DNA of 64,000 bases from a virus. How positions within the stretch are numbered: the first letter of the stretch is position 1; the number at the start of each line of letters is the position of its first letter. This document shows positions 13,564 to 40,000 of the stretch, in pieces. The position numbers and the translations under genes were made by a program. Where the stretch lies: IMG/VR virus record IMGVR_UViG_3300037511_000475. One strand, given 5' to 3'. The notes beneath the pieces are model-generated. The model was not told the origin of the DNA. It saw nothing but the letters and a program-made list of their open reading frames with translations, and made no database searches.

Positions 13564-13575
13564 AAAAAGTCACGG
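13564..13575 (+). promoter_or_regulatory. candidate late-promoter motif B
   Basis: AAAAAGTCACGG upstream of tail fibre 1. Confidence 0.6.
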
Positions 13576-13636
13576 CATAAGCCGTATTTGGTTTAGATGG
13601 AGGGCGATCGCCCCTAAATTTGAGGATGAGGCTTTA

Positions 13637-16501
13637 TTGAGTTCTATGGCGATCGTTTCAGTTAGAACCAACATCAGAGACGGCTATCTATTGGTTTATC
13701 CAGAGGTGCCGTTTTTAGATGGTGAAACGATTGTTACCAAGGACAAGCTGAAGTTTAGAATCCGCAATTATGTCGCATCAGTTGAGGTTCCACTCTCGGT
13801 TGATGTTTTTTACAATTTCGAGATTTACAACTTAAAAGATGTGCTGGTGTGGTCAGGCCCAGCATTGATTGATAGCGCTGAAATCATCCTGGCTGATGCT
13901 GTTGATATTTCGCCTCCACCCGTCAATCCGTGGAGTGTGGCAGTTAATTTTTTGATCTCCAGACTGCCAGAATCTTCAGCGTTTCGATCGCTTTTAGTTG
14001 ATCTTTTGGGTGAGATAGGTGCAGGAACCAGTGATCATGGATCACTCACTGGATTGGAAGACGACGACCACCCGCAATATTTAACTGAATTTCGGGCGGA
14101 TCCTATTTATTGGCGAAAAGATGAGCTTATTTCAGAAGATGCGATAGATAGTGCGATCGCTCGTGACTCAGAGGTTAGTAGTGCGATCGCCGCTATCACC
14201 CCTGAATCAATTGGGGCATTGAGTATTGCTGACATTGGCGACACTGTGCAATGGTACAGCGATAATCTTGCTTCAGTGTCAGGACTGCATACGGATGGAT
14301 TCGTGACCCGTGACACCTTTGGGCTGTGGTCAACCATCCCCGTTGCCAATTTTCAGGTGGCTGATCCTGATTTGGCGGCGATCGCTGGCTTTTCTGAGAC
14401 TAGCGGAACCGGATACCTATTCCGAGATGGCATCAACAGTTACAGCCTGATTGATGCTGAATTTGCAACGGTAACCAATCTAAGTGACGCGATCGCGGGC
14501 ATCACCCTTGATTCATTGGGAGGCATCACTGAATCAGAGGGAGATGCCCGCTACCGCTTGCAATCTGTGGCGATCGACTACACCACGCTTACGAATCTCC
14601 CCACCCTTGGCACGGCTGCAAGCCAGAACACCTCAGCTTTTGCCACCGCTGCACAGGGAACAAAGGCTGATAGTGCATTACAGCCCTCAGCGATCGGCAC
14701 AACCATTACAGCATCCGCTCTTGGTGCCATCACTCAATCCGCAGCCGATGATCGCTATCGCTTGCAGTCAGTAGCAATCAGTTATCTTACCCTGACTAAT
14801 CTCCCTACCCTTGGCACAGCAGCCGCACAAAACACAGCAGCATTTGCTACAGCGGCACAGGGTACTCTTGCGGGAACTGCTTTACAGCCAGGGACAGCGA
14901 TCGCCAATATTTCAGGCTTACAAACTGCATTAGATGGCAAGCAGACCGCTTTTACTGTGCAAGCCGCCAACCGAGTATATGCAGGGCCAACGACAGGGGC
15001 GGATAGTTCTCCTAGTTTCCGGGCATTGGTCGCCGCTGATATTCCTGCGATCGCAATCTCTGGAGTCACAGGATTACAAACTTCTCTAGACGCTAAGGGT
15101 ACAGTTTCAAGCGTTGCACTGTCAGCACCTAACCTGTTTAGTGTTTCCGGATCTCCAATTACCGGATCCGGTACGCTGACACTAACTCTTGCCACTCAAC
15201 CCGCCAACAGAGTGTGGGCAGGCCCAACAACAGGCGCAGATGCTGCACCCACGTTTAGGACATTGGTTGCGGGCGATATCCCTGCGATCGCCATTAGCGG
15301 TGTAACAGGACTGCAAACGGCACTAGATGGCAAACAGGCAGCAACGACAGTACAGACTTTAGGCGATGCCAACGCCTCAATCAACTCTACTACCACGATC
15401 GCCCGCATCACCTCCACACTCACAGCAGCACGCACTTACACTTTGCCAGCGGCTAATGCGGTATCTGATGGGTGGGAAATTGAGCTGATTGACACCACAA
15501 GTTCAGTCGGTGTTAGCGGGTACACGGCAACCCTTGCGGCGACGGGTAGCGATACCATCAACGGCACGGCAACCATTGTCTTACGAATACCCAACGGAAA
15601 GATTCGGTTACGCTCAAACGGGAGTAATCGATGGGCGATCGTCTCCGCTCCCGATGTTTTCCATAGCCTAGTTACCAGTTCAACCACCTACACTCCCCCT
15701 GAGACTGCAACAGTCATCAAGTGGTACGGGTTGGGAGGTGGCTCCGCTGGTGGTGGCGGTAGTACAGGTGCGGCGGGAACCAACCGATCAGGTGGTGGCG
15801 CTGGTGCCCCTGGCGGCATGACCTACGGGGAATGGGCGATCGCTGAACTGCTAGCACTGTATGGAACTAAAGACTTGGTAGTAACCGTTGGCGTAGGCGG
15901 AACTCCAGGCGCGGCAGTAAGTGCCAACTCAACCAACGGCAACCCAGGCGGGGCAGGCGGAAATACTGTTATTTCTTGCGGTGGTGTTGTGATCGGCGTG
16001 GGCTTAGGGGCCAACGCTAGTACGGGTGGGCCAAGTGCGGGAACTCAATCAACGGCGATCCTTAACGTTGGTTCAGCGTTCCCTATGCCAACCTTAGCGA
16101 ACGGGACTAACGTAGCCGGCGGATCTGGGGCGATCGCTAACGGGTTTGGGGCTGCTGGCGGTGGCGGTGGCGGTGGCTTGGACACTGCAAATACAAACCG
16201 ATCGGGTGGCACGGGCGGCATAGGTGGTCGCACGTCCAAAAGCACCACAGGGGGTGCAAGTGGTACGGCTGGGGGCGGCAACGGCGGCAACGGCAACGCC
16301 CTTACGTCCAATCCCTACAACTGGGGTGATGGCGGCGGCGGTGGCGGCTCAAACAACGCTGGCAATGGCGGCAATGGTGGCAACGCTTCCGGGTATGGGA
16401 ATGGCGGTGGCGGCGGCGGTGCTTGTGTGAATGGTTTTACCGCTGGGCAGGGTGGCAACGGTGCCCAGGGTGCTGTCTTGTTTATTGCTTCTAGGGGCTA
16501 G
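13637..16501 (+). CDS. tail fibre-like virion protein with internal repeats and Gly-rich C-terminal domain
   Basis: Repeated LGTAA...FATAAQG and AGPTTGAD.P.FR.LVA.DIP modules; GGGGGG-rich C-terminus. Confidence 0.8.
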   Translation: MSSMAIVSVRTNIRDGYLLVYPEVPFLDGETIVTKDKLKFRIRNYVASVEVPLSVDVFYNFEIYNLKDVLVWSGPALIDSAEIILADAVDISPPPVNPWSVAVNFLISRLPESSAFRSLLVDLLGEIGAGTSDHGSLTGLEDDDHPQYLTEFRADPIYWRKDELISEDAIDSAIARDSEVSSAIAAITPESIGALSIADIGDTVQWYSDNLASVSGLHTDGFVTRDTFGLWSTIPVANFQVADPDLAAIAGFSETSGTGYLFRDGINSYSLIDAEFATVTNLSDAIAGITLDSLGGITESEGDARYRLQSVAIDYTTLTNLPTLGTAASQNTSAFATAAQGTKADSALQPSAIGTTITASALGAITQSAADDRYRLQSVAISYLTLTNLPTLGTAAAQNTAAFATAAQGTLAGTALQPGTAIANISGLQTALDGKQTAFTVQAANRVYAGPTTGADSSPSFRALVAADIPAIAISGVTGLQTSLDAKGTVSSVALSAPNLFSVSGSPITGSGTLTLTLATQPANRVWAGPTTGADAAPTFRTLVAGDIPAIAISGVTGLQTALDGKQAATTVQTLGDANASINSTTTIARITSTLTAARTYTLPAANAVSDGWEIELIDTTSSVGVSGYTATLAATGSDTINGTATIVLRIPNGKIRLRSNGSNRWAIVSAPDVFHSLVTSSTTYTPPETATVIKWYGLGGGSAGGGGSTGAAGTNRSGGGAGAPGGMTYGEWAIAELLALYGTKDLVVTVGVGGTPGAAVSANSTNGNPGGAGGNTVISCGGVVIGVGLGANASTGGPSAGTQSTAILNVGSAFPMPTLANGTNVAGGSGAIANGFGAAGGGGGGGLDTANTNRSGGTGGIGGRTSKSTTGGASGTAGGGNGGNGNALTSNPYNWGDGGGGGGSNNAGNGGNGGNASGYGNGGGGGGACVNGFTAGQGGNGAQGAVLFIASRG

Positions 16502-16503
16502 AC

Positions 16504-16788
16504 ATGAACCTTTTTGTGGCTGAATGCGATCGCCAATCTGGTGAAATCCTCAATACCACACTTCACCGTGAGGTGGATGTAACCTACGACCCCGAAACCC
16601 TTGAAGTATCCAAGCTCGCCATTCCTCTAATGCAAGGCGTGATCTATTTCGTGGTGCCAGACGAGAAGCGGTACTACTGCCAGATCGGGGGGATGTGGGA
16701 GCTAAACACACTTCCGCCTACATGGATTCTTCCCACACCTCCCGAACTACCACCAATTGAAGAAGTACCGCCTGAAGAAGAATCTTAG
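16504..16788 (+). CDS. fibre-associated small protein (possible chaperone)
   Basis: Directly follows fibre gene; Pro/Glu-rich tail. Confidence 0.55.
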   Translation: MNLFVAECDRQSGEILNTTLHREVDVTYDPETLEVSKLAIPLMQGVIYFVVPDEKRYYCQIGGMWELNTLPPTWILPTPPELPPIEEVPPEEES

Positions 16789-17969
16789 GCAATCCCAGCC
16801 AATGCTTTCACGCGATTGACTACGGCTTTATCTTCTGGCTGTAGCGGCGCGCCGTTTGTTACCTTGGCGATCGCCTCAATCATCCCCTTGGCATCCTCTG
16901 ACTTACCCTCATCGACGGGGAAGTGCCCAAAATCATCTAATCCCTGGTAATTAAACAGGAGCATCGGCTTAACAATCTTTTCGATCAATTGCCCTCCAAC
17001 GTTGTGCATGTTGGACTTGACAACGATGGACAGGATCTTGTTATGACCTTCACTCAGTCCACTATCACCTGTACCGGATAAATTGCTTCCGAGTGCTGTT
17101 TCGGGCACTAGCCAACACAATGCGATCATCCGCTCAAACAGTTTCAAGCAAGATTCAAACATTGCTGGTGTACCCTGTTGGGCGATCGCCTCAATATCGT
17201 CCTCAAGACCAATCACTATTGCAGAAGCATTTTCCAGGTCTTCCATGCGTTTTAACATCGCATGGCCTTGATTGATTTTTATGGGTTTGCCGTGTTGATC
17301 TAAAATCGTTACGCCATTTTCATCAATGCGATCGACCGATGCCGTAATGTCTGTTTTCCCTACCGTAATCGGTGTGGCTTGACGCTGGCAGGCTACCAAA
17401 AGACAAGCAGTAGCAATTTTATAGGCTTCCCAGTAAGGGAGTGCCCGTTTGGCAGGTGAATACCCATAGGGAGAATTGTCGATCACTAAATGTTCTTGAT
17501 TGACCAGGTGTATCCCCTCTTCGTAGGGAATAAGGATATTGCCCTCTGTCGACCTGTATTCAACCTCTTTTATTCCACCAGCGGAACCGCGAAACGAATA
17601 TCGCCTCGGATCTAGGGTGAGCATCCGATCGAGAACGGCACGACCGGATGAAGTATCAAAAGCCCTCTCAGTGAAGCTAAACCCGTAATAGGTGTAGTTC
17701 ATCGCCTTAGCAACTGCGCTCATCCAAGATCCGTTCATCTTGGCAAAACTTGCGCGTACTTCTGCCTGGATATCTTCCGTTGGCCCTATATAGTCCTGGA
17801 TGTATGTCAACCCTAACAGCACAGGTAGTTCGGCATAGGCTGCTACAACCGGGTGAGACAGCATTTCATAGTAATCATCAAGCGAGTATCGATCTTTGCG
17901 GTTGACGCTTGCCAATATTTGAGAGGCGATCGCCTCAACAGCAGGTGTAAGAATTTTTGTTGAAATCAT
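16785..17969 (-). CDS. portal protein (DUF935 / Mu gp29-like)
   Basis: AMNYTYYGFSFTE, SPYGYSPAKRALPYWEAYK, CQRQATPITVGK, LGSNLSG...LSEGH, IEKIVKPMLLFN pattern. Confidence 0.8.
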   Translation of the reverse strand: MISTKILTPAVEAIASQILASVNRKDRYSLDDYYEMLSHPVVAAYAELPVLLGLTYIQDYIGPTEDIQAEVRASFAKMNGSWMSAVAKAMNYTYYGFSFTERAFDTSSGRAVLDRMLTLDPRRYSFRGSAGGIKEVEYRSTEGNILIPYEEGIHLVNQEHLVIDNSPYGYSPAKRALPYWEAYKIATACLLVACQRQATPITVGKTDITASVDRIDENGVTILDQHGKPIKINQGHAMLKRMEDLENASAIVIGLEDDIEAIAQQGTPAMFESCLKLFERMIALCWLVPETALGSNLSGTGDSGLSEGHNKILSIVVKSNMHNVGGQLIEKIVKPMLLFNYQGLDDFGHFPVDEGKSEDAKGMIEAIAKVTNGAPLQPEDKAVVNRVKALAGIA

Positions 17970-18133
17970 GGTGCATCCTGTTTAGTGGCTTCCTGTTCTT
18001 TTTTGCGTGCCAGAGATGCCGCCTCCTGACCAATAGCCCATACAGCTATTCCTACAAAAATCCGCCAATCGGAAAGAAACACGATTAGCAATCCCGCGCA
18101 ACTGCACAACACCGCAAACTGTCTTATGGTCAT
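17966..18133 (-). CDS. small two-TM membrane protein (55 aa, not in ORF track)
   Basis: MTIRQFAVLCSCAGLLIVFLSDWRIFVGIAVWAIGQEAASLARKKEQEATKQDAP; TGA overlaps portal ATG. Confidence 0.6.
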   Translation of the reverse strand: MTIRQFAVLCSCAGLLIVFLSDWRIFVGIAVWAIGQEAASLARKKEQEATKQDAP

Positions 18134-18180
18134 GATTAATATGGACTCCCTTTACGGCGATCGCCTGCTTTCATCTTGTA

Positions 18181-18540
18181 TCAAAGGGATTCTTGAAAGA
18201 ACCCTTTCAATGCTTCTATGTCTGCGCCGATCTTTGCCAGTAGTGCGTGCACGTCCTGTTTTTGTGATAGATTTGCGATCGCCTCTAACTCCGATGTCAT
18301 GGACTGAATACTACCTTTCACTTTTAACTCCTCAACTTCCCATGGAGCCGGAAAACCCGTAATTTCTTTGGCCTTAAGCTGTGAGGCGCGATCGCTTTGC
18401 GCTTCTTCCGGCGAATCAAATTCTTGCTCGGAACAAACGTGAAAACCTCCACCTTCATCTGATTTTGCGATCAGGTGCCATTTGCCTGATGGATTTCCGT
18501 CAGCATCCTTTAATTGCATTGGCTGCACATACCAAACCAT
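18181..18540 (-). CDS. hypothetical protein
   Basis: 119-aa ORF in the portal operon. Confidence 0.65.
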   Translation of the reverse strand: MVWYVQPMQLKDADGNPSGKWHLIAKSDEGGGFHVCSEQEFDSPEEAQSDRASQLKAKEITGFPAPWEVEELKVKGSIQSMTSELEAIANLSQKQDVHALLAKIGADIEALKGFFQESL

Positions 18541-18542
18541 TA

Positions 18543-18827
18543 CTATTTCCCTTCGGTGATGGACTTGTGTTTGCGATCGCTATCCGGCTTTTCAATCTCA
18601 GCCAAAAGCTCAATGGATGACGGCTCAATCATCCCGTGTGTACCAATGCCCTGATCTTGTTTCCAGGCACTAAAAGCAGCAACCGTTTTAAGACCTACAG
18701 CCCCATCAATATCTGCCTCTTCTAGATATCCACCCCTGACTAACTGTTGCTGCACCCACGTAACGTTAGGGTGTGGCAACAGGTCTAAGCGAATAGGGTT
18801 TTTGAGAGTGGGCTTAGGTGCCATCAA
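18543..18827 (-). CDS. peptidoglycan-binding domain protein with no catalytic domain
   Basis: VTWVQQQLVRGGY...IDGAVGLKTVAAFSAWKQDQGIGTHGMI matches PG_binding_1. Confidence 0.75.
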   Translation of the reverse strand: MMAPKPTLKNPIRLDLLPHPNVTWVQQQLVRGGYLEEADIDGAVGLKTVAAFSAWKQDQGIGTHGMIEPSSIELLAEIEKPDSDRKHKSITEGK

Positions 18828-19105
18828 AACAAATCTCTGATTTTTCTCGAATTAACTAAAGCTTGAAATAACCGCAATTCCGTAACCGTTGGCTGTGCCC
18901 GTCCTCTCTCCCAATCAGAGATCCGTTGCTGCGAGATATTCTCCGCGCCACGGTGCTTCATGGCGATCGCCAATTGCTGTTGCGTAAAACGCGCTTCAGC
19001 ACGGGCCTGTCGAATAGTTTCAGCAACCTGATCGGCTCCCTTGTGCCGTTCCAAATACACTCGTTGCCGTGCCGTAAATTCAAATTGTTGTAGATCCTCT
19101 TGCAT
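18824..19105 (-). CDS. XRE-family HTH regulator
   Basis: IRQARAEARFTQQQLA...SQQRISDWERGRAQP. Confidence 0.88.
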   Translation of the reverse strand: MQEDLQQFEFTARQRVYLERHKGADQVAETIRQARAEARFTQQQLAIAMKHRGAENISQQRISDWERGRAQPTVTELRLFQALVNSRKIRDLF

Positions 19106-19124
19106 AAATCCACGGGCAAAACGA

Positions 19125-19136
19125 AAAAACTCACGG
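19125..19136 (+). promoter_or_regulatory. candidate late-promoter motif B
   Basis: AAAAACTCACGG upstream of head operon. Confidence 0.65.
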
Positions 19137-19143
19137 CATAGAC

Positions 19144-19162
19144 CGTATTGTATATCAAGCCT
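19144..19162. promoter_or_regulatory. operator motif A, CAAGCC half-site variant
   Basis: CGTATTG TATAT CAAGCCT. Confidence 0.65.
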
Positions 19163-19222
19163 AGCTCATTCCAATTATGGTTGATTTAGCCCTAAAACTC
19201 CAACTTTTTATACTTGTGCGCT

Positions 19223-20383
19223 ATGCCTGACTACCAGATCTATTTATATGGCGAAATTGGCGATAGTTGGTGGGATGAAGAGCCGCTGACAGCCAAGGCG
19301 ATCGCCGCTCAATTGGAAGAAATCCCATTGGATTCTGAGATTGAATTGCGTATCAATAGCCCTGGTGGTGATCTGGGTGAAGGTTTGGCGATCTATTCCC
19401 TGCTGAAGGAGCGCGCACCCTACATAACGGCGCGTGTAGACGGTTATGCCTTAAGTGCTGCCAGTTTCATCCTGTGTGCAGCATCTAAGGTTGTAGCGTC
19501 CGACTCTTCAATTTTCATGATCCACAACCCGCACACCATCTCCTACGGCGATGCAAACGCCTTAAGGAAAACAGCGGATGTGCTAGATACCCATCGCAAT
19601 GCAGTGCTGGGGATTTACCGCGACAAAACAGGTAAATCGGATAGTGACATCATCACTGCACTAGATGACGAAACTTGGTTTACCGGGGAAGAAGCGGTCG
19701 AATTTGGCCTTGCTGATGAGTTGAATAATGAGGCGATCGCCGAACCCGTAAAAAATTCTTTGCCGCCATGGTTGAAGGTTTCAGCCAGTGCAAAGAAGAA
19801 GCTGAAAGCCGCTGGCTTGATGCCCAAACAAAGCCGCGTTGCGGCAAAAGCCAACACCTTACCAAAGGAGAAAACAACAGTGCCTAATGAAGAAGAAAAA
19901 ACGCAAAAAATCGACAATGAAGCCCAAAGCACCGTCGAAATGAAAGCTTTGCTGGCACGGGTAACCGACCTGGAAGCTCAGGCCAAAATGCAGAGTGAAG
20001 CGATCGCAGCCAAAGATCGCGAACTGGCAGAACTGAAGCGGAAAGATGCTGTTACCGCCCTTTATACAAAGGTGCGTAACATGGCTGATTCTTTGGTCAA
20101 GAGCAATTCACCCAAGCTTTCCACGGCTGAATTTGAAGCACTGGGGTTTACCGCTGATGCTGATGCCGACATCAAAAACTTTTTGGCTGATGACAATGCG
20201 GAAACCGCCTTAAAGCAGGCTAATTTCTACGTTGAAATGGCTAAGCATCGTCCTCCCATGCTCCAAACAAAGCTTCAAACGGGTGATGAGCCCTTGCCCG
20301 AAAAGGAGCCTGCAAGCCCTGAACAAGATGAACAGTATCAGGCAGACATGGCACGCTTTGAAGCTCGACTGAAGCGCAAGTAA
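19223..20383 (+). CDS. ClpP-like prohead protease with C-terminal scaffold region
   Basis: LRINSPGGD, ALSAAS, MIHNP, DETWFTGEEAVEFGLAD; coiled-coil C-terminus. Confidence 0.92.
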   Translation: MPDYQIYLYGEIGDSWWDEEPLTAKAIAAQLEEIPLDSEIELRINSPGGDLGEGLAIYSLLKERAPYITARVDGYALSAASFILCAASKVVASDSSIFMIHNPHTISYGDANALRKTADVLDTHRNAVLGIYRDKTGKSDSDIITALDDETWFTGEEAVEFGLADELNNEAIAEPVKNSLPPWLKVSASAKKKLKAAGLMPKQSRVAAKANTLPKEKTTVPNEEEKTQKIDNEAQSTVEMKALLARVTDLEAQAKMQSEAIAAKDRELAELKRKDAVTALYTKVRNMADSLVKSNSPKLSTAEFEALGFTADADADIKNFLADDNAETALKQANFYVEMAKHRPPMLQTKLQTGDEPLPEKEPASPEQDEQYQADMARFEARLKRK

Positions 20384-20418
20384 AGCGATCGCACCCTCAC
20401 CTTTTCGCATACCTATAG

Positions 20419-20437
20419 TGTATTGAAATACAGGACA
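20419..20437. promoter_or_regulatory. operator motif A
   Basis: TGTATTG AAATA CAGGACA, 5 nt before ATG. Confidence 0.65.
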
Positions 20438-20442
20438 CCCCG

Positions 20443-21303
20443 ATGGGACTTTATCAAGAGTTAGAAACGTATTCCAATGATTCGCCGTTGCTGCGATCGC
20501 CCCATTTCCATTGCCCGGTTCACCGGACTATTGACGACACCAAAGTAACAGCCAATGGTGAAGGCAGTAAAACCTTCCCCGGTGGTTACTTCGTCGCAGA
20601 ATCTACCAACGGGTTAGGGCGCATTGCACCCCGTTCTAAAGTTGCAACCGCTGCAATTACTACGTCTTCAACGGCAATTGTCGTTGAGAATGCAATGCCT
20701 TTTGTTGCAGGTGATGTACTGGTTATCCCAGTGCCTTACGCCCGTCTGGATCTGGCGTTGACCTGGGCAAATGCTGACGTTGCAAACGTTGTCATTGCAG
20801 GTCAAACCCTCAGTTACACTGTTGCTGGTTATGACACGCTAACAGCACTCGCCACCACGTTAGCGGGGTTGATCAATGCCTATCCTGCATACCGGGGACG
20901 AGTAGAGGCGATCGCAGAATCCCAATACATTCACTTGTATTCGCTGGATGGGCGCTATCACACGGTTTCAGCTTCCGACACCACAGCAGGAAACGGTACT
21001 TTGACCGTTGCAAACTCTGCAACCACATTCCAGGCAAATCTAAGCGTTGGCACGATAACGACTGCTGGTGTTGATGTCGATAGCAACACTATCACCTTGG
21101 CTTCTACGGCTGCGCGGCGTCTACCTGTTGGCGGTTATGTCGGCACATCTGACAAGGTGCTGGGCTTGCTGCTGCGTCAAATTGATGTAGCAAATGAACC
21201 GGGAATTATGGGGCTTTGCACCCAAGCGGAAATCATCGCCGCCAACCTCCCCTACTACGACGGTGATATAGCCTTCACCCTACCAGATTTGAAGGTTTAT
21301 TAA
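20443..21303 (+). CDS. head decoration / capsid-stabilising protein
   Basis: Between protease and capsid; beta-rich with inserted domain; lambda gpD-like position. Confidence 0.65.
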   Translation: MGLYQELETYSNDSPLLRSPHFHCPVHRTIDDTKVTANGEGSKTFPGGYFVAESTNGLGRIAPRSKVATAAITTSSTAIVVENAMPFVAGDVLVIPVPYARLDLALTWANADVANVVIAGQTLSYTVAGYDTLTALATTLAGLINAYPAYRGRVEAIAESQYIHLYSLDGRYHTVSASDTTAGNGTLTVANSATTFQANLSVGTITTAGVDVDSNTITLASTAARRLPVGGYVGTSDKVLGLLLRQIDVANEPGIMGLCTQAEIIAANLPYYDGDIAFTLPDLKVY

Positions 21304-21347
21304 TTGTCAGACACAGACTTACTACCCTTTGAGGGAGGATTCAACAA

Positions 21348-22385
21348 GTGCAAGTAAAGGATTTTCTTGACAAGCATAAATATACGATCGATAAACAGGT
21401 CGATATTACAACCCAAGAGCTATTAATGCGTGAAGGGTTGATTCAGACCTACTTCCCGATCGACACTTACACCGATTTTGACGTGATGATTTTGCGTGTT
21501 CGGCAGAACAAGCAACTCGCTCACATCATCGGTATTGATGGCGAGATTCCGGAAAGCAAGGCTGGCTCAATGAGCATGGCGATCGCACAAGAGATCAAGA
21601 TTGGGCGATCGCATGTTTACACCGAAAGCGATATGAAGCTTCTCAAGCGTTGGCAGGAAAACATTCGAGGCATCCCCGACGATGTTCGTGACTATTTCTT
21701 TGGTACCGCTGCCAGCCATCCACAGGCCATTCTGGATACGCATAATTTGCTGTGTGTGCAACTGATGTATTCCGGCACAATCAATTACACGGATCCCATT
21801 ACAGAAGTTGCTGTAAGTCAGACTTACCCAACTGAATCATGGCAATATCCATCAGCGTTGAGTGGCGGCGCACGATGGAACCAGGCAACAGGAAACTGCC
21901 TCACGAACCTCCGTGATCATGCTCGTGAATATCGCCGGCGTCTAGGCTTTACGCCTGACATCTTAATCAACGAAGACACCGTTGATCTAATGCTGGAACA
22001 GACGGCAGTAAAAGAAGCAGCACTAGCCCGAAAAGGCGTGAATCTTGATACTGCTGGTGTTGCAGCCTACGACGTGAGCATCGATGAACTGCAAGACCTG
22101 CTTGATGTTCGGCGCGCTGGAACACTTCGCATTTTCGATGAGAAATACGAAGACTTTGATGGCGTTGAGCAATTCTTTATGCCGGAGGGGTATTACGCCT
22201 TTGCTATTCCCGATATGGGGGATAGCGGTCTAATGCCCGTACCTAGTAACAACATGGCAAGCGGTATTTACGTGTTCTCCGAGGAGCTATCTAAAGAGCC
22301 TCCTAAAGATCGCACCGTTGGCGTAGCTAATACGGCGATCGTTGTTGACGATATTCGCCGCCTGGCTGGTCGCAAAGTTTACTAA
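21348..22385 (+). CDS. major capsid protein (lambda gpE-like family)
   Basis: 345 aa; position; LIQTYFP, AVSQTYP...ARWNQ, FMPEGYYAF pattern of Phage_cap_E. Confidence 0.85.
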   Translation: MQVKDFLDKHKYTIDKQVDITTQELLMREGLIQTYFPIDTYTDFDVMILRVRQNKQLAHIIGIDGEIPESKAGSMSMAIAQEIKIGRSHVYTESDMKLLKRWQENIRGIPDDVRDYFFGTAASHPQAILDTHNLLCVQLMYSGTINYTDPITEVAVSQTYPTESWQYPSALSGGARWNQATGNCLTNLRDHAREYRRRLGFTPDILINEDTVDLMLEQTAVKEAALARKGVNLDTAGVAAYDVSIDELQDLLDVRRAGTLRIFDEKYEDFDGVEQFFMPEGYYAFAIPDMGDSGLMPVPSNNMASGIYVFSEELSKEPPKDRTVGVANTAIVVDDIRRLAGRKVY

Positions 22386-22436
22386 TTCCGCCCTTGTTCC
22401 TGCTCGGTATTCCTGAAAATCATCTGAGGTAAGACA

Positions 22437-23156
22437 ATGCCTATTGCTGTTGGCGAAACTAGTTTGCGCTTTACTACTCTCAAAGTAAAGCTTTTGGATC
22501 TGGGTGTTCGTACCGTTACGCCCGTTACTATCACTGCTGATGCAGCGATCGCAGAGGGTGCAACAAGCGCTTCTCTGACCGCCTCCACGGCTGCCACAGT
22601 TGTTCCTGCTGGAACTGCCCTGCCATTCAATGAAGCTTCCCCTTCTGGTGCTACTAGCCGAAAGCTGATTGTTACTCGTGCTGATGCAACGCTCGGAACC
22701 ACTCCCACTTCTGTAAGTATCTTCCCTGCCCGTTTAGCGGTTCCTGATACGGAAGAGGCTAGTTTCGTTGCAGGCCTGCTGCCTGTGTTTGGTCTGCAAG
22801 AATTCTCCTTCCAAACTCAAGACCAGACGGTAGATACAACCGACACCCTGTCAGGGATTGGTACCGAGATGGCGATCGTTCGAAGCGGCATCGAGTTTAC
22901 GATGAGCCATATTGAAAGGGTTGCAGATAAAGGTCTGACAACCATCATTAAACAGGTAGCACTGGACATGGCGCTAAAAGGCCGCGAAGTATACGCAGAG
23001 CTGGTTTTTGCTGACGGGGAAACCCACAAAGGTGCAGCCAAGGTGATGAACTACAGCCAACCTGGCAACCAGAACGAAGTTAAGAAAGTTAGCTATACCC
23101 TTCAGTTCCAGGGTGAGAGCTACTACTACGAACCTGCCTATACCTTTGCCGCTTAA
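22437..23156 (+). CDS. major tail tube protein
   Basis: PVFGLQEFSFQTQDQTVDTTD...GAAKVMNYSQPG...VSYTLQFQG siphovirus tube pattern. Confidence 0.8.
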   Translation: MPIAVGETSLRFTTLKVKLLDLGVRTVTPVTITADAAIAEGATSASLTASTAATVVPAGTALPFNEASPSGATSRKLIVTRADATLGTTPTSVSIFPARLAVPDTEEASFVAGLLPVFGLQEFSFQTQDQTVDTTDTLSGIGTEMAIVRSGIEFTMSHIERVADKGLTTIIKQVALDMALKGREVYAELVFADGETHKGAAKVMNYSQPGNQNEVKKVSYTLQFQGESYYYEPAYTFAA

Positions 23157-23158
23157 TC

Positions 23159-23407
23159 ATGCAAGTTGATTACCTCTCAGATCCCGATCAATCGTTTGCA
23201 GCTTTGGTCAATTGCAAGGTTGAGGAAAGCGAAATCAAATGCGGGTTTGCCTGGTTTCTGGGAGGTATCAGCGGCGATATTGAGCTAGTCAGTCCTGAGG
23301 GCTTTTCAGTTTTAATCCTGATACCTAAAGAGGTTCAGAACGTAGCTACAGCACACGTTCTATGCAATCCCGATGAAGCGATCGCAATCCAGCGAATCAA
23401 ATTATGA
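23159..23407 (+). CDS. hypothetical protein
   Basis: 82-aa ORF in morphogenesis operon. Confidence 0.65.
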   Translation: MQVDYLSDPDQSFAALVNCKVEESEIKCGFAWFLGGISGDIELVSPEGFSVLILIPKEVQNVATAHVLCNPDEAIAIQRIKL

Positions 23408-23640
23408 AACTAAAAGCACTGAAAAAATGCTGGGATTATCAGAAGGAAATCGCGGTTCCGGCAGGTGAAGAATTTGATCTGCCAACCAACCAGGCACAAT
23501 CCCTAATCAAAATTGGGGCAGCGATCGCCCTCCCAGTAGAACCTGCACCATTAAGTGTTGATTTACTTGAGGAGGATGCGATCGCCCCACCATTGCCCAA
23601 ACCTGAACTTCCTAAGCCAACGAAGAAGCCTAAAACTTGA
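23404..23640 (+). CDS. small head-associated hypothetical protein
   Basis: AGEEFDLP..QAQSLIKIGAA plus Pro/Lys tail; ATGA overlap. Confidence 0.65.
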   Translation: MKLKALKKCWDYQKEIAVPAGEEFDLPTNQAQSLIKIGAAIALPVEPAPLSVDLLEEDAIAPPLPKPELPKPTKKPKT

Positions 23641-24037
23641 TAGGTCTTTTGGGGTTTGGTTCTTTTAATGGACGTGATGCTGAATGAAACTGTGTACGGT
23701 TTTCGGTGCTGGCGGGTGATTGAGATTCAAGTAAAGACAGAAGCCTTTGATATTCAATCCCGTACTTTGTTGAGCCCAGGTCTTTATCGGCATAAGTGAC
23801 CGTATAGCCTTCATCGTTACGCTCAAACTGTTTTACCGTATCGGGCGATCGCTCACTTGCTTCATTCCGCAAAGTTAGTTTATGCCCCATCAAGGCAATA
23901 AAAGCTGAATCGTACAAAATGCCCCAATCACGCAGCATTAACTCAGCATCAACCAATGTTTTGAATGCCAGGTAATCAGGCTCAGTCAGGCTTGAAAATT
24001 CGGTCAAAATCGTGAAACTTTCGTAGGTAATAGCCAT
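23630..24037 (-). CDS. head-tail adaptor (DUF4054-like), inverted relative to operon
   Basis: EFSSL...W..LYD.AFIALMGH.LTL...SVTY...DLGSTKYGIEYQRLL. Confidence 0.75.
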   Translation of the reverse strand: MAITYESFTILTEFSSLTEPDYLAFKTLVDAELMLRDWGILYDSAFIALMGHKLTLRNEASERSPDTVKQFERNDEGYTVTYADKDLGSTKYGIEYQRLLSLLESQSPASTENRTQFHSASRPLKEPNPKRPIKF

Positions 24038-24485
24038 GTTTAGCGTGGAAAAACTTACTACTCAAACCTTAGCCGGAATACCTTCCGACTGGTTGAAGAT
24101 GGAGCCGAATTTTGAAATTACGCAAACAACCAGAACAGGCGAAACCGAGATCGTGAATGGGTTGGAAGTGTTTGTTGAAGGGGCGATCGCCACAACCACA
24201 ACCTATTTAGCCTACGTACATGAACCCAAAGATCCTAGAGAAGTAATCCAGGGTGAAGCCGCAACCTCAAGGCTTTATCTGAAGGGGCACCTAATCGATC
24301 CGGTGCAGTTCCCCTCAGACTTTGATTATGATGCTCAATTTACAGCCCGGTTTCTGTCTGGCTCCTTAGCAAATGTTGGCTACGGAGTTTTTCAGTTACA
24401 GCCAATCATCGAACCTGGTTCAACTGCGTTAACCGAAAAGATGGGGCAACGGATCACGGGATTCTTTACGGCAAACACCCGATAA
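24036..24485 (+). CDS. head closure / head-tail joining protein (alternative start 24099)
   Basis: Position; beta-rich composition. Confidence 0.6.
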   Translation: MFSVEKLTTQTLAGIPSDWLKMEPNFEITQTTRTGETEIVNGLEVFVEGAIATTTTYLAYVHEPKDPREVIQGEAATSRLYLKGHLIDPVQFPSDFDYDAQFTARFLSGSLANVGYGVFQLQPIIEPGSTALTEKMGQRITGFFTANTR

Positions 24486-24489
24486 GCCT

Positions 24490-24891
24490 ATGTATGGAAG
24501 CGGAACATACGAATCAGTAATGAGCATCCTCAGAGAATTGCTGGATGCTGAAATTGGTACGTTTAAGGACGGGCGAAAGGCGTTCTGGGATGACCTGCGA
24601 TCGCGTCCTGACATGAACCCTGGGATGCTGTTGATCTTGCGCCGTCATCCCCTGCGAGTGAACGATCAAATGGATCAATGGTTTTTGTCTTTGGTGCAGA
24701 GCGATCGCTCTGATGCTGGTGTGCAGAAGTTTGATAGTGCGATCGCCAAACTAAAAGATAAGTTTCCGCAACATCGGAATCTGCTTGTTTTTGATGGTGG
24801 CGATGGGCAACCGCTTCAATGCAATCTCCGTTTGCTGTTTCACCCAGAAGCGTATCCAAATATTAACGGCAGAATCGTGGAGGCTTTATGA
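24490..24891 (+). CDS. tail terminator-like protein
   Basis: 133 aa; neck-module position. Confidence 0.5.
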   Translation: MYGSGTYESVMSILRELLDAEIGTFKDGRKAFWDDLRSRPDMNPGMLLILRRHPLRVNDQMDQWFLSLVQSDRSDAGVQKFDSAIAKLKDKFPQHRNLLVFDGGDGQPLQCNLRLLFHPEAYPNINGRIVEAL

Positions 24892-27371: not shown

Positions 27372-27372
27372 T

Positions 27373-28275
27373 ATGAAGATCACTTCTAACCCGTTTGCTT
27401 TACCTGAAGTTCCTGTGCATCTGCTAACTGGGCCATTGGGAAAAGTCTGGTTTTTGCGTCGTGGCTTTGTCGAGCCTGCCTTGGTAAATGAGATGATTCA
27501 ATCTCAGCAGGGACGGCAGTTGGAGCTATCTTTGCTGATGTTGGATGCCTCTGAAGCACTCGCAAAAGCCAAGAGCATAAGTGATGAAGAAGCGCGCAAT
27601 ATGTTCGCACCTCAACAGATGGCGGATGGCAGCTTTGTTGAAGCGCAAGCAAATCCAATTGATTACCTCACTCGCGAACAACGGAAGCAGTATCTAGAAT
27701 TAGCTAATTCCGGTACAAATAACTTGCAGATCCAGGTAGCTACAGCCCTGATCCAGACCCGGATTATGTTTGCGTTGGAGTTGGCAGAGGATGCGGCGAT
27801 CGCCTCCGAGAAAATCAAAGTTAAGCGTAAATGGTTTAGCCCTGAAGTTGGGCAGAAGTACCAAACAGCAGACGGCGTAAGCGTAGAGATCAAGGGCATT
27901 ATTTCCGCTAATGAGTTCAAAGTTAAGCCATTGGCATCGGCATTGGCAGCGGATGACAGCATTTTCCTGATGGAGGATGCAGAGAGCTATAAGGTTGGAA
28001 TGGAAGGCTGGAAGGAGGCGGATACAAATCGCTTCTTAGGTTTGCAGTCAGGCCAGAACCAAGCACAAATTCCTGTTTTGTATCAGTTCTTTCTGGAAGA
28101 GCGATCGGCTGCGTCTGAAGAGGAAACGGAGGGAAACGAGATCCCAGAGATTTCAGAGACAGCAAGCCAAAGCCAATTGACTGGGAAAGCATCTATTACA
28201 GACTCCAGTTCCTTGGATGCAGAGATTCAAGACTTACCGATTATCGAAGCTATCGAAGAACCGATACCCGTTTAA
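27373..28275 (+). CDS. tail assembly chaperone (gpG-like)
   Basis: Upstream of tape measure; acidic tail; contains slippery heptamer. Confidence 0.75.
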   Translation: MKITSNPFALPEVPVHLLTGPLGKVWFLRRGFVEPALVNEMIQSQQGRQLELSLLMLDASEALAKAKSISDEEARNMFAPQQMADGSFVEAQANPIDYLTREQRKQYLELANSGTNNLQIQVATALIQTRIMFALELAEDAAIASEKIKVKRKWFSPEVGQKYQTADGVSVEIKGIISANEFKVKPLASALAADDSIFLMEDAESYKVGMEGWKEADTNRFLGLQSGQNQAQIPVLYQFFLEERSAASEEETEGNEIPEISETASQSQLTGKASITDSSSLDAEIQDLPIIEAIEEPIPV

Positions 28276-28571
28276 TCTTGAGGGCATTGGTGCAACTGGA
28301 AGAGGCGGAACGCGATCGCATCAATGCCCAATCTCGCACCCAGGCGCACGGATGGTCTGCCCTCTTCAGTTCCGGAATTTTCAAGGCGGAAACTGAACCA
28401 TCACGTTGGTTGCCATTCCCGCCAAAAGATAGCAAGTCTGAAAGGATGTCACCTCGCACAACGGCAGCATTTAAGCGGTTAATGAGCAAAGGACTTATTT
28501 CTAATCAGATGGTGTTGGCTGCTGCGATGTCAATCAATTTTGAACTAATACCTAAAGACGAGGAAATATAG
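28119..28571 (+). CDS. gpT-like frameshift extension of the chaperone
   Basis: -1 frame reads GKRDPRDFRDSKPKPIDWESIYYRLQFLGCRDSRLTDYRSYRRTDTRLILRALVQLEE... Confidence 0.75.
   Translation, partial: RGNGGKRDPRDFRDSKPKPIDWESIYYRLQFLGCRDSRLTDYRSYRRTDTRLILRALVQLEEAERDRINAQSRTQAHGWSALFSSGIFKAETEPSRWLPFPPKDSKSERMSPRTTAAFKRLMSKGLISNQMVLAAAMSINFELIPKDEEI
28131..28137 (+). other. programmed -1 ribosomal frameshift site
   Basis: G GGA AAC in the gpG zero frame; -1 frame open from 28119 to 28571. Confidence 0.85.
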
Positions 28572-28584
28572 GAGGCGATCGCCC

Positions 28585-28785
28585 ATGAGCATCTTGACTG
28601 CAACTAGCAATGAATCAGAAGACGAATATGAACTAGTTGACTCGTATGACTACGGCAACCGCATAGTGCAGCGAATCTTGGTCTGCACGTATCTAGATGA
28701 AGACGGCAAAGAATGTGCTGAATACATTGAAGCTGAAGCTATTCCAGTCACAAAGGTAAAAAGATTGAAGCTCGATCGCCCCTAA
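28585..28785 (+). CDS. small acidic hypothetical protein
   Basis: 66-aa ORF followed by terminator. Confidence 0.55.
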   Translation: MSILTATSNESEDEYELVDSYDYGNRIVQRILVCTYLDEDGKECAEYIEAEAIPVTKVKRLKLDRP

Positions 28786-28808
28786 TTCATTTTTCAGTGT
28801 GAGTGATG

Positions 28809-28837
28809 GAGGTGTGTAAAACACACCTCTTTTTTTG
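28809..28837 (+). terminator. intrinsic terminator before tape measure gene
   Basis: GAGGTGTGT-AAA-ACACACCTC-TTTTTTT. Confidence 0.85.
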
Positions 28838-28843
28838 TGCTTG

Positions 28844-28855
28844 AAAAACTCACGG
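28844..28855 (+). promoter_or_regulatory. candidate late-promoter motif B
   Basis: AAAAACTCACGG(ATT) right after the terminator, before tape measure ATG. Confidence 0.7.
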
Positions 28856-28920
28856 ATTCTTGTTTTGCAGGCATTCCAGCAGATTAGATTGGTGATGAAG
28901 CAATTGCGCGATCGCCTACC

Positions 28921-31900
28921 ATGCCGACCATTTTAGATACTTTGCTGTTAGAGGTTGACCTCGACCCTTCACGTTACGCCGCAAAGATTGGTCAACTTAG
29001 AACTGATGCCATGGCATCGGCTAAAGAGGTTGAGAGCGTATTTAAGAGCGTCAACGCAACACTATCGGCGAAGGTAGACGATCGCGCACTGACTGCCCTA
29101 AACAAGCACTTAGACCTAAAACAGGCGCACTTTGCCCAGGTACGGCGTGATTTTCAACAAAACCCGTTGAAGCCAAGGGTGGATTTCAAGGATTTAGACA
29201 ACCTTGAACGGCGATTAAACCGTCTCAAAAGCGGTTCCTTCAACGTAAATATCTCTGCATCCGGTGGCACTTCGTCCGGTTCTCATCAGCAAATGGCGGA
29301 TGCGATCGGGCGCGCGGTTGCTAAACATTCCCGCCCTTCTACTGTTTCGCGTATCGTGGGTGGAGTTGCAAATGCTGCAACAGCACCTATTCGTGCTGCC
29401 CTGGCTATCCCCTCGCAGGTCATCAGCCAATCTGCACAAGGGATTGCCTTTGGTGTAGCCAATGAGGTTTCTAAGAATCTTGGGAAAGGTTTATCTACTG
29501 CACTTGAATCAGCCGTTTCACGTTCATTCGGTAGCACTGAGCTAATTGGTGAAAAGCTGGGTGGTGCAGTTGGTGCAGCGGTTGTTGACGCTTTTGGCGA
29601 TCGCATTAAAAGCATCCCAGATTTACTTGAAAAAGCGATCGATCGCATCCAATCCCCAAAGAAACGTGCTGAACTCAAAAAAATGCTGGCAACCATCCAG
29701 GAAGTTCCTGGGGTTGTGCGTAAGCAGGCAGTTGACACCTTGGGGGGTGAAGCCGCTGTAGCTCAGGAAGGGATGGCTGTACGGCAATCCCAGCGCAAGC
29801 GCAAGCAAGCCAAAAAGCCAGCAACGCAAGAGGGTGCGGCAACTGAATGGCGCGATGCCCTATGGAATCGTGATTTAGTAAACGCTGAAGCAGGCGATCG
29901 CCGTACCGCCAACGACAAACAACGCGCCATCCTCCAACGGCAGGGACAAGAGGCACAAAAGGCCTTTGCCGACTTAAACAAACAACTTGAAGAGGCGAAA
30001 GCAACAGGCGACAAAGAGTTAGAGGCTGAAACCAATAAGGCGATCGCCCAGGTATCAGCGATCGCCATGGGTACAGTTGAGGCGATCGAGCAACTTGAAA
30101 AGCTAGACACGGAGATAGCTAAGGAAAGTCAAAAAGCTGATGAACGCGTGAAACAGGCATACGCCCGCTATCAAAGCGTTATGCCACGGCAACGCCCAAA
30201 ATCTTATGAAGATTTATTCAGCCAAGCGACGAAAGGTGCTGTCAGTCAAGAAAAGATGCCAGTGCTGCGAGTAGCTGATACCAAACTTAAAAAGATTGGT
30301 GCAAAGGCGCAATATGATGTTGCCCGCAACGCAATCGAGGTTACGCGTGAAACCTATGATGCGATCGTTTCTGGTACTCTGACCAATGCACAACGTGAAA
30401 CCCTTCTAGAAGAGTTGAATCATGCTGTAGATTTTGACTTTGGCTCTTTCAAAGGAATGCAGGCGGCAAAATCAAGGCGCGTAGTGGGGAAACCTGTCAC
30501 ACCTACGGCTGAAGAGTTTGCAAAGCTTGCGCCTGAATTGGGTTTATACTCACCCGATCGCCGTGCCCTGGAATTAAACGCCAAAGTGAAGGCGATGCGC
30601 GATCTGGATGCTGTAAGCCAATCTTCGCGGCAAGCCAAAAACCTTGAGTTGGTGCCAGAAGTTGCTGTAAATAAGCTGAAAATAGAGCGGCAACGTAAAC
30701 TATTTGATGCTCAACTAGGTTGGCTGGATGAACAGGGAGCAGCTAAAGGAGTTGATGTTTCCGGCTTTGTTGGCAAGTATCGCGAATTGTTTGATGATCT
30801 TGACTCAAAGATCACGGGGCTGGTTAGTTCTGTCACTGAAGCCGGATTAGATGCGGATCCGGCAGAAGTTGAAGCCGCTATCAAAAAGATGGAGGCTTAT
30901 TGGAGCACCCTTGAGACTCTAAACACCAAACTTCAAGAGCGGATTAAGCTCACGGCTCAAGGCGTTGGGCCTAAGCCTGAGTCAGCATCGCTCGCTCGCA
31001 CTACACAGGCGATCGCTCAACAATCTGGCGAGGGCAAAACGGTCAGAGAGCGGGTTAATGATGTGGCCTACCAAGCAGGGGCGATCGCAGGCAATGCAGC
31101 GGGTGCAATGCGGTCTGTTATTGGCTCCCCTCAAGTGCAGGCGATCGGGAAATTTACTGTTGGAGTTTACAAAGCTTCAGAGGCGATCGAAAGTCTCGTT
31201 TTAGACCTGGTTCCTTTTGGACGGATTGCCAAGGGCACTATTAAAAATGTTGCCGCTCCAATGGCTATGTACGGGGCTGCAACCCATCTGTTACCCGGTG
31301 GTGCTGCATTGGGTGAAGCCATCACCCACACAGCGCAGATGGGGCTTACTCCTATCGGAAACATGGTTTCCGGCGGAATGATGGATGCTGCATCGGCAAC
31401 TATCAGTCACTTGCCCGGTGCATTTGGCATTCAGCAAGCTGTTTCCGGTGCTGTTAGTGCTGGAATTGAATCACTTACCCAGGCGGGTACAGCGGCGATC
31501 GCCTCTGTCGGTACTGCCCTCATCGGCGGAAAAGCGATGCAGAATGCTGCTGCGATGCCATTGAAGGCGATCGCCCCTGGTTCTGCGTTGCAACTTCAAT
31601 CTGCACAACAAAAAGCTTTGCCTGGTAGTAACGCAGCAGCAGCCCTGACGTTAACATCCCCTACAACACTGAATGAGGCAAAAACAAAAGCTGTAGAAGC
31701 CGCATATAAAGCCGGTCAGATGGCAGGAGAGGCGATCGCCAATGTCCAAGAACTAATCGATGCTGGTAACGCCCTGGTTGGCAATGTCTCAAGCGCTTAT
31801 GCCAACCTGAAAGATGCTATCAAAACCGCTGAAAAGGCGATGAAGACAGGCGATCAAGGGGCGATCGCCGAAACACAACGTAACGTAAAAGCGTACGAAG

Positions 31901-38970: not shown

Positions 38971-39003
38971 GCGATCGCCGCCACAGCACTTAAAAGCCTC
39001 TGA

Positions 39004-39022: not shown

Positions 39023-39049
39023 TCAGAGGCGACCAGTTAAGGGCGATCG

Positions 39050-39691
39050 CTAATCAACATGCTTCCAGATTTCACGCCTTACGATGTAACCAACCAGGCT
39101 AAAGTGAACGCTGTACTTTTCCGCTATTTGGGAATAACTCAAGCCACTAGCATGCAATTGTCGAATTTCGCGCACTTGCGATTCCTTGAGCTTAGAATTT
39201 ATCTGCTTTTCACCTTTGTATGAACGCCCAGAAACAACCATATCATTGCTATTTTGCTGTGGCGTCCCTGCATATAGATGCCTTGGATTTATGCATTTTC
39301 GGTTATTGCATTTATGGCAAGCAATTATTTGACGCCCAATCAATTGAAAGCCCTGCTGCTGAAGGACAAAGCGATGTAATGAAATCTTTTTGCCGTTAAT
39401 CATCATCTCGGGATAGCCATTGGGCCTGACATAAACATCGGGTTCCAAGCATCCTGTCTCGGGAATCTCTTTCAACCTGCCTTTTTCCCTCAGCTGTTCA
39501 ACTACATCCTTACTAGGATCAATGCAAGGCGATGGTCGATATCTGCGCTTGACATCCTCACATGAAGCCTTTAAGAGCTTTGCGACCGTAGGGTAAACAA
39601 CCCCGCACCGTTCCGCAATCTCCTTTACTGGAACACCTTGGTTATAAAGCTCGATAATTTTCGCGTTTCGCTTCTGTGTGCGCTTAAGCAT
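39050..39691 (-). CDS. HNH homing-type endonuclease with N- and C-terminal HTH domains
   Basis: LHRFV...ACHKCNNRKCINPRHLYAGTPQQNSNDM; LKESQVREIR...SYSQIAEKY; ATG 39691 preferred. Confidence 0.9.
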   Translation of the reverse strand: MLKRTQKRNAKIIELYNQGVPVKEIAERCGVVYPTVAKLLKASCEDVKRRYRPSPCIDPSKDVVEQLREKGRLKEIPETGCLEPDVYVRPNGYPEMMINGKKISLHRFVLQQQGFQLIGRQIIACHKCNNRKCINPRHLYAGTPQQNSNDMVVSGRSYKGEKQINSKLKESQVREIRQLHASGLSYSQIAEKYSVHFSLVGYIVRREIWKHVD

Positions 39692-39707
39692 ATTCAACCT
39701 CGCAAGA

Positions 39708-39726
39708 TGTATTGTAATAGAATACA
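39708..39726. promoter_or_regulatory. operator motif A
   Basis: TGTATTG TAATA GAATACA upstream of HNH. Confidence 0.75.
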
Positions 39727-39759
39727 AAACGGTCAAAAAAACACCTTAGGGCGATCGCC

Positions 39760-39921
39760 CTACCTACCTTCACCCTTCGATTCAGACTCGTTCACAACTT
39801 CTTCCATGCAAGTTTCGATCAGGTTACTAAGCGATCGCCTCCTTGTCTTTGCCAAAAGTTCCAACCGCGCCTTCAATTCCTCATCCAGGTAAAGCGAAAT
39901 CCGTTTTTTGCTTGTTGTCAT
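39760..39921 (-). CDS. ribbon-helix-helix regulator, 53 aa, not in ORF track
   Basis: MTTSKKRISLYLDEELKARLELLAKTRRRSLSNLIETCMEEVVNESESKGEGR. Confidence 0.85.
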   Translation of the reverse strand: MTTSKKRISLYLDEELKARLELLAKTRRRSLSNLIETCMEEVVNESESKGEGR

Positions 39922-39988
39922 AATCGCGCCTTAATAGTGCTGGCATAACACTATGGTAGCACTACCAAAGGGTGATTGTGTTGCGGTT

Positions 39989-40000
39989 AAAAACTCACGG
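39989..40000 (+). promoter_or_regulatory. candidate late-promoter motif B
   Basis: AAAAACTCACGG(ATT) upstream of tail tip operon. Confidence 0.7.

Follow-up and report, generated by a model that had tools for sequence, protein, structure and literature searches.

The use of a common activator site at the late promoters of a phage is a textbook principle. In phage P2, the Ogr sites lie about -55 upstream and act through the alpha subunit (PMC3152322), and in phage Mu four late promoters possess -10 but no -35 hexamers, with the C site at -43.5 (PMC2582627). Autogenous activation and repression by small helix-turn-helix (HTH) controller proteins are described as well (PMC2175313). Here, we put forward another example, from an unstudied lineage: the 12-base word AAAAASTCACGG, that is, AAAAA(C/G)TCACGG, which is found in a 64-kb window (the whole stretch of DNA that was analysed; IMG/VR record IMGVR_UViG_3300037511_000475) from a 79,361-nt soil-metagenome contig of an uncultured phage. 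We consider, at slightly better than even odds (a probability of roughly 0.55), that this word is a cis site bordering, on the upstream side, four weak late promoters, which would be read by the host RNA polymerase, and that it is bound by a putative sequence-specific activator. The host itself is very probably a cyanobacterium, since the cyanobacterial HIP1 octamer GCGATCGC is present in 220 copies in the window (3.4 per kb).

A pattern scan of the window gives exactly four matches to the word, at 13564, 19125, 28844, and 39989, all on the plus strand; in 100 dinucleotide shuffles the mean is 0.05 matches, and four are never reached. Every copy is intergenic, in a gap of 103–135 nt, and is oriented toward the downstream genes, in a window of which some 8% is non-coding. 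Measured from the start of the word to the start codons of public gene calls (13646, 19223, 28921, and 40061), the distances are 82 nt for a fibre-like gene, 98 nt for the head protease gene, 77 nt for the tape measure gene, and 72 nt for the first distal tail gene; from the end of the word they are 60–86 nt. An earlier reading of this DNA, made from its letters alone (the sequence-only reading), had reported these four plus-strand copies, about 60–90 nt upstream of fibre, head protease, tape measure, and distal tail genes, with two of them continuing as CATA and two as ATT, and all of this stands. It had also said that many copies in non-promoter positions would speak against a promoter site, and the exact copies are the four intergenic ones only.

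The CATA continuation is found at 13564, where the word has its G variant, and at 19125, and the ATT continuation at 28844 and 39989. Outside the 12-mer, only a T three bases after it is common to all four copies, and both flanks are otherwise unrelated; further similarity is confined to the CATA pair, which is alike at 24 of 27 positions counted from the word start. The word is asymmetric, with no dyad in two of the sites and a 4-bp dyad in the other two, where the additional sequence shared by the CATA class (CATARRCCGTATT) contains ACGG-N6-CCGT and ends in a half-site of an abundant palindrome, TGTATTG-N5-CAATACA. A second protein may, therefore, act at the CATA copies too, because both lie in divergent regulatory regions.

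One should keep in mind that short words do recur by chance. In an unbiased k-mer census, two or three non-HIP1 12-mers also recur three times in this way, but all of their copies are coding, whereas the word is intergenic in every copy and co-oriented with the genes downstream. TCACGG alone, the core of the word, is not enriched, and elsewhere it is either coding or without the A-tract; there are, therefore, no stray copies of the word.

At each of the four sites, a plus-strand promoter is logically required. Three copies follow a strand switch, with the upstream gene on the opposite strand, and the fourth, at 28844, follows a strong terminator (a 10-bp stem and seven T residues) that ends 7 nt before it, so that the promoter of the tape measure gene must lie in the next 80 nt. 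Both this terminator and the probable need of the tape measure gene for a new promoter had been pointed out in the sequence-only reading, and the sequence bears them out. From 13 to 43.6 kb, all three minus-to-plus switches and the sole terminator-bounded plus-to-plus gap carry the word. At copy 28844, the sequence GTGAGT (28798-28804) is complementary to ACTCAC of the word (28848-28854), and RNA folding of 28786-28860 pairs the two in an outer stem around the terminator; this was found only at that copy and is treated as a coincidence.

The 60 nt downstream of each copy (+13 to +72) were scanned for hexamers of the cyanobacterial -10 type, TAnnnT. Such hexamers are few in these segments, and one is present downstream of every copy, at +42 for the ATT pair and at +52 for the CATA pair. 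Word and hexamer are separated by sequence that is unrelated within each class, and a longer duplication therefore does not explain the common offset. All four copies fit an offset of d or d+10 with P = 2e-4 (20,000 shuffles of the four downstream segments), although the test was framed post hoc and P becomes ~3e-3 when any offset difference is allowed; such a fit was met with in 0 of 20,000 draws of other gene-upstream 60-mers.

The core promoters appear weak, since no sigma-70 consensus match of at least 9/12 was found on the plus strand of the four gaps. A good -35 is missing at all four sites, the best being TTTAGA at 13592, and at copy 39989 there is none because a HIP1 site occupies the -35 position. 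If the hexamers are real -10s, transcription would start near 13627, 19188, 28897, and 40042, with leaders of 18–35 nt, and the word would occupy about -53 to -42 in the ATT copies and, one helical turn further upstream, about -63 to -52 in the CATA copies, with a predicted site centre at about -48 or -58.

In the mechanism that we propose, a sequence-specific DNA-binding protein would bind the word and, from either of these two positions, would help the polymerase to use a TAnnnT -10 that has no proper -35. Since the classes differ by exactly 10 bp, the protein would be on the same helix face in both, as for an activator that contacts the polymerase from upstream. Transcripts from the four promoters would cover the fibre-like gene, the block from head to tail tube, the tape measure gene, and the first block of distal tail genes. 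We infer from the sequence that the hexamers are real -10s, that there is activation, that its timing is late, and which protein binds.

Comparison with a relative can be made at copy 19125. The XRE protein encoded beside this copy has one close relative, 88–91% identical, on a 1266-nt public contig (L007) that also holds the start of the protease gene. The flanking coding DNA of the two is 68–81% identical, and the 19 nt directly upstream of the word (19106-19124) are 58% identical. From the first A of the word onward, 38 of 38 positions are identical; the next segment, inside the 17-bp spacer of the predicted plus-strand promoter, agrees at 4 of 10, and the block with TATGGT and the leader at 41 of 42 (coordinates in the table below). 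This pattern (a conserved site and -35 area, a free spacer, and a conserved -10 and leader) is the one that would be expected for a functional upstream site with a sigma-70-type core promoter. The first conserved block also holds ACGG-N6-CCGT, a predicted minus-strand -10, and a degenerate half of the abundant palindrome, which follows the word.

Two weaker likenesses to the word deserve mention. A possible fifth copy, at 472, has 17 of its first 20 positions in common with copy 19125. A second copy, ATAAATCCACGG (19104-19115; 9/12), precedes copy 19125 by exactly 21 nt and overlaps the start codon of the XRE gene; its counterpart in L007, TAAAATCACGG, is nearer to the word. The latter was rejected, its strength being within chance expectation (~0.4 per site).

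For the other three sites, no counterpart was found in any collection searched. Megablast against a phage collection gave no match; IMG/VR scans seeded with proteins (the protease, the tape measure N-terminus, and the M-like tail protein) gave relatives of ~40% identity or none; a scan of GTDB genomes gave one 40% relative, in a Sterolibacterium metagenome-assembled genome (MAG); and JGI metagenome contigs scanned with the M-like protein gave none. Exact scans of IMG/VR and metagenome contigs with a 25-nt CATA-class pattern were likewise empty, a protein search found no relative of the 66-aa gene before copy 28844, and protein cluster look-ups returned singletons only. A supposed cluster mate, P0129 (locus L008), proved to be an unrelated 43-aa glycine-rich fragment beside an amine oxidase gene. 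No RNA run was found to contain this DNA, and three DNA runs against 13450-29050 yielded contigs of 150–230 nt only, none of them over 13564 or 28844; one soil-run contig spans 19122-19330 with 8 differences.

The word is absent from four distant relatives (L005, L009, L010, and L011). In L009, a repeated word common to the XRE-protease gap and other gaps was sought, and none was found. An apparent repeat, CAAAAATATG, in the comparison of the distant-relative gaps is mere start-codon context.

Table. Coordinates of the word copies, predicted promoter elements, and neighbouring features in the 64-kb window.
Feature	Position	Strand	Remarks
Possible fifth, degenerate copy, AAAAACTCGCGG, then AATAGATC	472..483	+	One mismatch; inside called gene 192-551 (minus); status uncertain
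Word copy 1, AAAAAGTCACGG, CATA class	13564..13575	+	Divergent gap 13509-13636, between 104-aa gene 13194-13508 (minus) and fibre-like gene (ATG 13646)
CATA-class extension, palindrome ACGG-N6-CCGT then ATT	13572..13588	+	
-10-like TAAATT	13615..13620	+	+52..57; TTTAGA 17 bp upstream is a weak -35
Mu-type portal gene (PF06074)	16785-17969	minus	
XRE/HTH_3 protein, 93 aa	18824..19105	minus	First gene of the operon that ends with the Mu-type portal
Word copy 2, AAAAACTCACGG, CATA class	19125..19136	+	Divergent gap 19106-19213, between XRE gene and head protease gene (ATG 19223)
Conserved block from the first A of the word	19125..19162	+	Compared with L007
Predicted sigma-70-type promoter of the XRE-to-portal operon	19147..19174	minus	TTGGAA, 16 bp, TACAAT
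Diverged segment	19163..19172	+	Compared with L007
Conserved TATGGT and leader	19173-19214	+	Compared with L007
-10-like TATGGT	19176..19181	+	+52..57; in the second conserved block
Intrinsic-terminator-like hairpin	28808..28837	+	Stem 28808-28830, then T7
Word copy 3, ATT class	28844..28855	+	Upstream of tape measure ATG 28921
-10-like TAGATT	28885..28890	+	+42..47
Tape measure protein, 3349 aa	28921-38970	+	
HNH endonuclease gene with two HTH domains	39050-39736	minus	Follows the ribbon-helix-helix gene
Ribbon-helix-helix (Arc/CopG-like) gene, 53 aa	39760..39921	minus	Divergent from copy 4
Word copy 4, ATT class	39989..40000	+	Divergent gap 39922-40024, between ribbon-helix-helix/HNH unit (minus) and lambda-M-like gene (ATG 40061)
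-10-like TAGAGT	40030..40035	+	+42..47
Third word family	6688, 8664, 8703, 27134, 27698, 34447, 40137, 51490, 55566, 60248, 60487, 60824, 61167, 61932, 63228		

Besides the post hoc framing of the phasing test, several points weigh against an activator site. The conservation covers one copy (19125) in one relative (L007), and the predicted minus-strand promoter of the XRE-portal operon is in the same block, so that part of the conservation may serve it. The word is not a general late signal, because it is missing from the two terminase genes, from the minus-strand XRE-to-portal operon, and from the tail I/J unit, which follows a terminator at 43655-43680. Because the CATA pair is so alike, the copies may stem from two duplications, that is, from fewer than four independent events. 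Ogr, Mu C, and most XRE proteins bind dyads, which the asymmetric word is not, and most of the open reading frames (ORFs) have no recognisable family, in scans that cover 64 kb of the 79-kb contig. The proposal of the sequence-only reading, a late-promoter or activator site, thus gains from the places where a promoter is required, the phased -10-like hexamer, the lack of a good -35, and the exact 5' edge of the conserved block in L007, but not all structural units are marked.

Pfam and PHROGs scans of some 75 ORFs in the 64 kb recognised no sigma factor, RNA polymerase, Ogr-like, or Mor/C-type protein, and for this set the earlier remark that no phage sigma factor was recognised holds. This matters for a different view of the word, as a core element for a phage-encoded or modified RNA polymerase or sigma factor, with the start at a fixed short distance downstream and TAnnnT irrelevant. 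Such an element could be likened to T4 gp55 late promoters or to the promoters of single-subunit polymerases. An asymmetric and invariant 12-bp word that always has the same orientation to the genes would suit it, nothing upstream of the word is conserved in L007, most ORFs are unannotated in the 64 kb covered of the 79,361-nt contig, and the distant relative L010 encodes a Sigma70_r2 protein. However, tblastn of that L010 protein against the window gave no match, the four copies have no second conserved element at a common offset within 30 nt, and the exact +42/+52 phasing would have to be a coincidence. We therefore consider a phage polymerase or sigma factor unlikely.

Two further promoter types were compared with the word by inspection. 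A sigma-54 reading (GG-N10-GC) is one base off in one copy and absent in the others; cyanobacteria, moreover, are not known to possess sigma-54. An ECF-type AAC...CGT reading fits two copies only, and there with a spacing of 13 instead of 16–17.

The same features of form, that is, an asymmetric word, co-oriented with transcription, in short intergenic regions at operon heads, would also suit a negative site, either an operator or an L5-like stoperator, at which a bound repressor silences the virion operons in the carried state. At 19125, the predicted XRE-portal transcript would start near 19140 and the word would then occupy about +4 to +16 of it, a repressing position, and the phage encodes temperate-type regulators (a CI-like protein, Ant, and Arc-like and XRE proteins). 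Relative to the plus-strand hexamers, though, the word lies beyond the -35 position on the upstream side, from where repression would work poorly; weak core promoters without a -35 need help, not silencing; and the abundant palindrome TGTATTG-N5-CAATACA already looks like a set of repressor operators. A negative site seems to us improbable.

One may also ask whether the word serves the minus strand, where CCGTGA(G/C)TTTTT would supply a small terminator or attenuator with its 3' arm and U-run, or would act as a leader element for divergent small regulator genes. A terminator scan does list minus-strand candidates with a hairpin and T-run at 13586-13571 and 19147-19132, and three of the four copies are in divergent gaps by small minus-strand genes, two of which code for DNA-binding proteins (XRE and the ribbon-helix-helix protein). 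But the stems are of 4–6 bp only, with none at 28844 and 39989, copy 28844 has no minus-strand gene beside it, and, while the plus-strand features are at fixed distances, the minus-strand start codons are not (20, 56, and 68 nt). A terminator upstream of a minus-strand gene has, in addition, no transcript to stop, and we regard a minus-strand role as very unlikely.

The word could also be functionless, either a remnant of small duplications or a string that recurs by chance in AT-rich intergenic DNA, as the 12-mers found thrice by chance, the likeness of the CATA copies, and the decayed copy at 472 inside a gene might suggest. This is hard to believe. The chance recurrences are all coding, whereas the word is co-oriented and intergenic in 4/4 copies (by position, ~0.08 to the fourth power); the 12-mer is exact between flanks that are unrelated on both sides; the phasing of the -10 has the P value of 2e-4 given above; and the word is 100% identical in L007, as against the lower identity of the 19 nt upstream and of the flanking coding DNA.

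If, as we prefer, the word is an activator site at weak late promoters, the XRE protein is a reasonable candidate for the factor, by its position and by the synteny of XRE and protease genes. Its gene adjoins copy 19125, and its helix-turn-helix has one residue different in L007, where the word is identical. A homologue (31% identity, E 7e-7) occupies the same divergent place before the head protease gene in a HIP1-rich Microcoleus MAG contig. Nothing connects the XRE protein to the other three sites. We suggest only tentatively, at well under even odds, that it is the factor, which at 19125 would repress its own XRE-portal promoter and activate the head promoter.

A wider scheme can be drawn, which we regard as doubtful. 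In it, the XRE protein would be a master activator of the late genes, of a type not described so far, acting at an asymmetric site (an A-tract and TCACGG) from two helically phased upstream positions and shutting off its own XRE-portal operon. Together with the separate palindrome, this would make a two-tier switch from lysis-lysogeny to morphogenesis, in a soil/freshwater cyanophage lineage that has no cultured member.

The operon headed by the XRE gene (16785-19105, minus) is unusual in itself. The portal gene, apparently its last, is on the opposite strand to the terminase and head genes, and between XRE and portal there are a PG_binding_1 protein and two small ORFs. In L005, L009, L010, and L011, the portal gene is co-linear with the protease gene.

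The phage is of an orphan lineage, without cultured relative: the closest match of its terminase in a phage database is 44% identical, and the top public match of the head protease is at most 48% identical. In addition to the genes tabulated, the window holds large and small terminase genes, genes for a ClpP-type head protease and a major head protein, lambda-like tail genes M, L, K, I, and J, a primase-helicase gene, and several small regulator genes. Besides the XRE, ribbon-helix-helix, and 104-aa proteins, the small DNA-binding candidates are a CI-like protein (657-1250), a protein with a LexA domain (56572-56946), a PadR-like protein (60500-60793), and a winged-helix protein (62556-62867). 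The lambda-M-like minor tail gene at 40061 is followed by L- and K-like genes, and a thymidylate synthase gene (phrog_85, E 1.6e-67; 41355-42170) lies between the M-like and L-like genes. The Arc-like ribbon-helix-helix and HNH genes (together 39050-39921, minus) lie between the tape measure and distal tail genes, splitting a tail operon that is normally single. Residues 2349-2483 of the tape measure protein resemble a metallo-endopeptidase or endolysin.

The fibre-like protein is glycine-rich, and its C-terminal half resembles viral glycine-rich and Mtd-type proteins; searches of PDB sequences with this protein and the 104-aa protein gave no match. In contigs of other metagenome runs, its glycine-rich C-terminal repeats (16150-16425) have many rearranged joints, which suggests that the tip is variable or repeat-unstable.

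The palindrome TGTATTG-N5-CAATACA has 32 matches with at most three mismatches, three of them exact, and several of the units without the word (among the tail I/J unit, the terminases, and the XRE-portal operon) carry it instead. It is often within a few bases of start codons (554-572, 3001-3019, 7132-7150, 56987-57005, and others); between the end of one such copy and the terminase ATG at 3024 there are, for instance, 4 nt. Matches also occur inside the structural region, at 20419, 39004, 39708, 41321, and 44340. A third family of recurrent words, centred on GAATTAGCTGAT, AATTAGCTAATT, and AATCACCTAAT, has about 15 copies, in both coding and non-coding DNA.

Apart from the marine T4-like and T7-like groups, the control of transcription in cyanophages is, to our knowledge, almost unknown. 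The regulon proposed here, with its four sites and predicted -10s, offers concrete and cheap experimental targets, with which one can test whether upstream, phase-dependent activation works with a cyanobacterial polymerase as it does in enterobacteria. For the annotator, there is the gain that four transcription units are defined and that the start codons at 13646, 19223, and 40061 are supported.

How, then, does this locus compare with systems that are already described? Mycobacteriophage L5 stoperators are asymmetric, of about 12–13 bp, and found in short intergenic regions in one orientation relative to transcription; there are some 30 of them, within transcribed regions, and they act negatively. 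Here, by contrast, there are four sites only, every one of which heads a unit and precedes a -10-like hexamer. Controllers of the C.PvuII type, and lambda CI at OR, are small HTH proteins beside their own site that repress their own promoter and activate a neighbouring one, which is the arrangement proposed at 19125. C-boxes and lambda operators, however, are palindromic and at or near -35 to -42, whereas here a dyad, of just 4 bp, is present at no more than two of the four sites.

Phage Mu has four promoters dependent on the activator C (Plys, PI, PP, and Pmom), and the likeness lies in a -10, no typical -35, and a common upstream element; the phage here also has a Mu-type portal. The C site of Mu is a 16-bp imperfect dyad that overlaps the -35, whereas the word is further upstream, at two phased distances, and without a dyad. 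By the marks of a Mor/C system, two of the four sites have no dyad, the predicted centre is at about -48 or -58, and no Mor-family match was found in the scanned ORFs of the 64-kb window.

With P2, P4, and 186 (Ogr, Delta, and B), the locus shares an arrangement of four late promoters of virion genes, putative here, and a conserved site upstream of the core, predicted here at -42 to -63, and also weak core promoters read by the host polymerase, which in this phage are predicted from sequence. The differences are that the P2 site is an inverted repeat, with a consensus of the TGT-N12-ACA type, bound by a small zinc-binding protein, and that the host here is probably a cyanobacterium; the word is asymmetric, and neither an inverted-repeat site nor an Ogr-like zinc-binding protein was recognised, the latter among the scanned ORFs. 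What the four sites do have, as far as sequence can tell, are the general features of activator-dependent late promoters: a co-oriented element before several virion operons and a -10 at a fixed distance from it, with a poor or absent -35.

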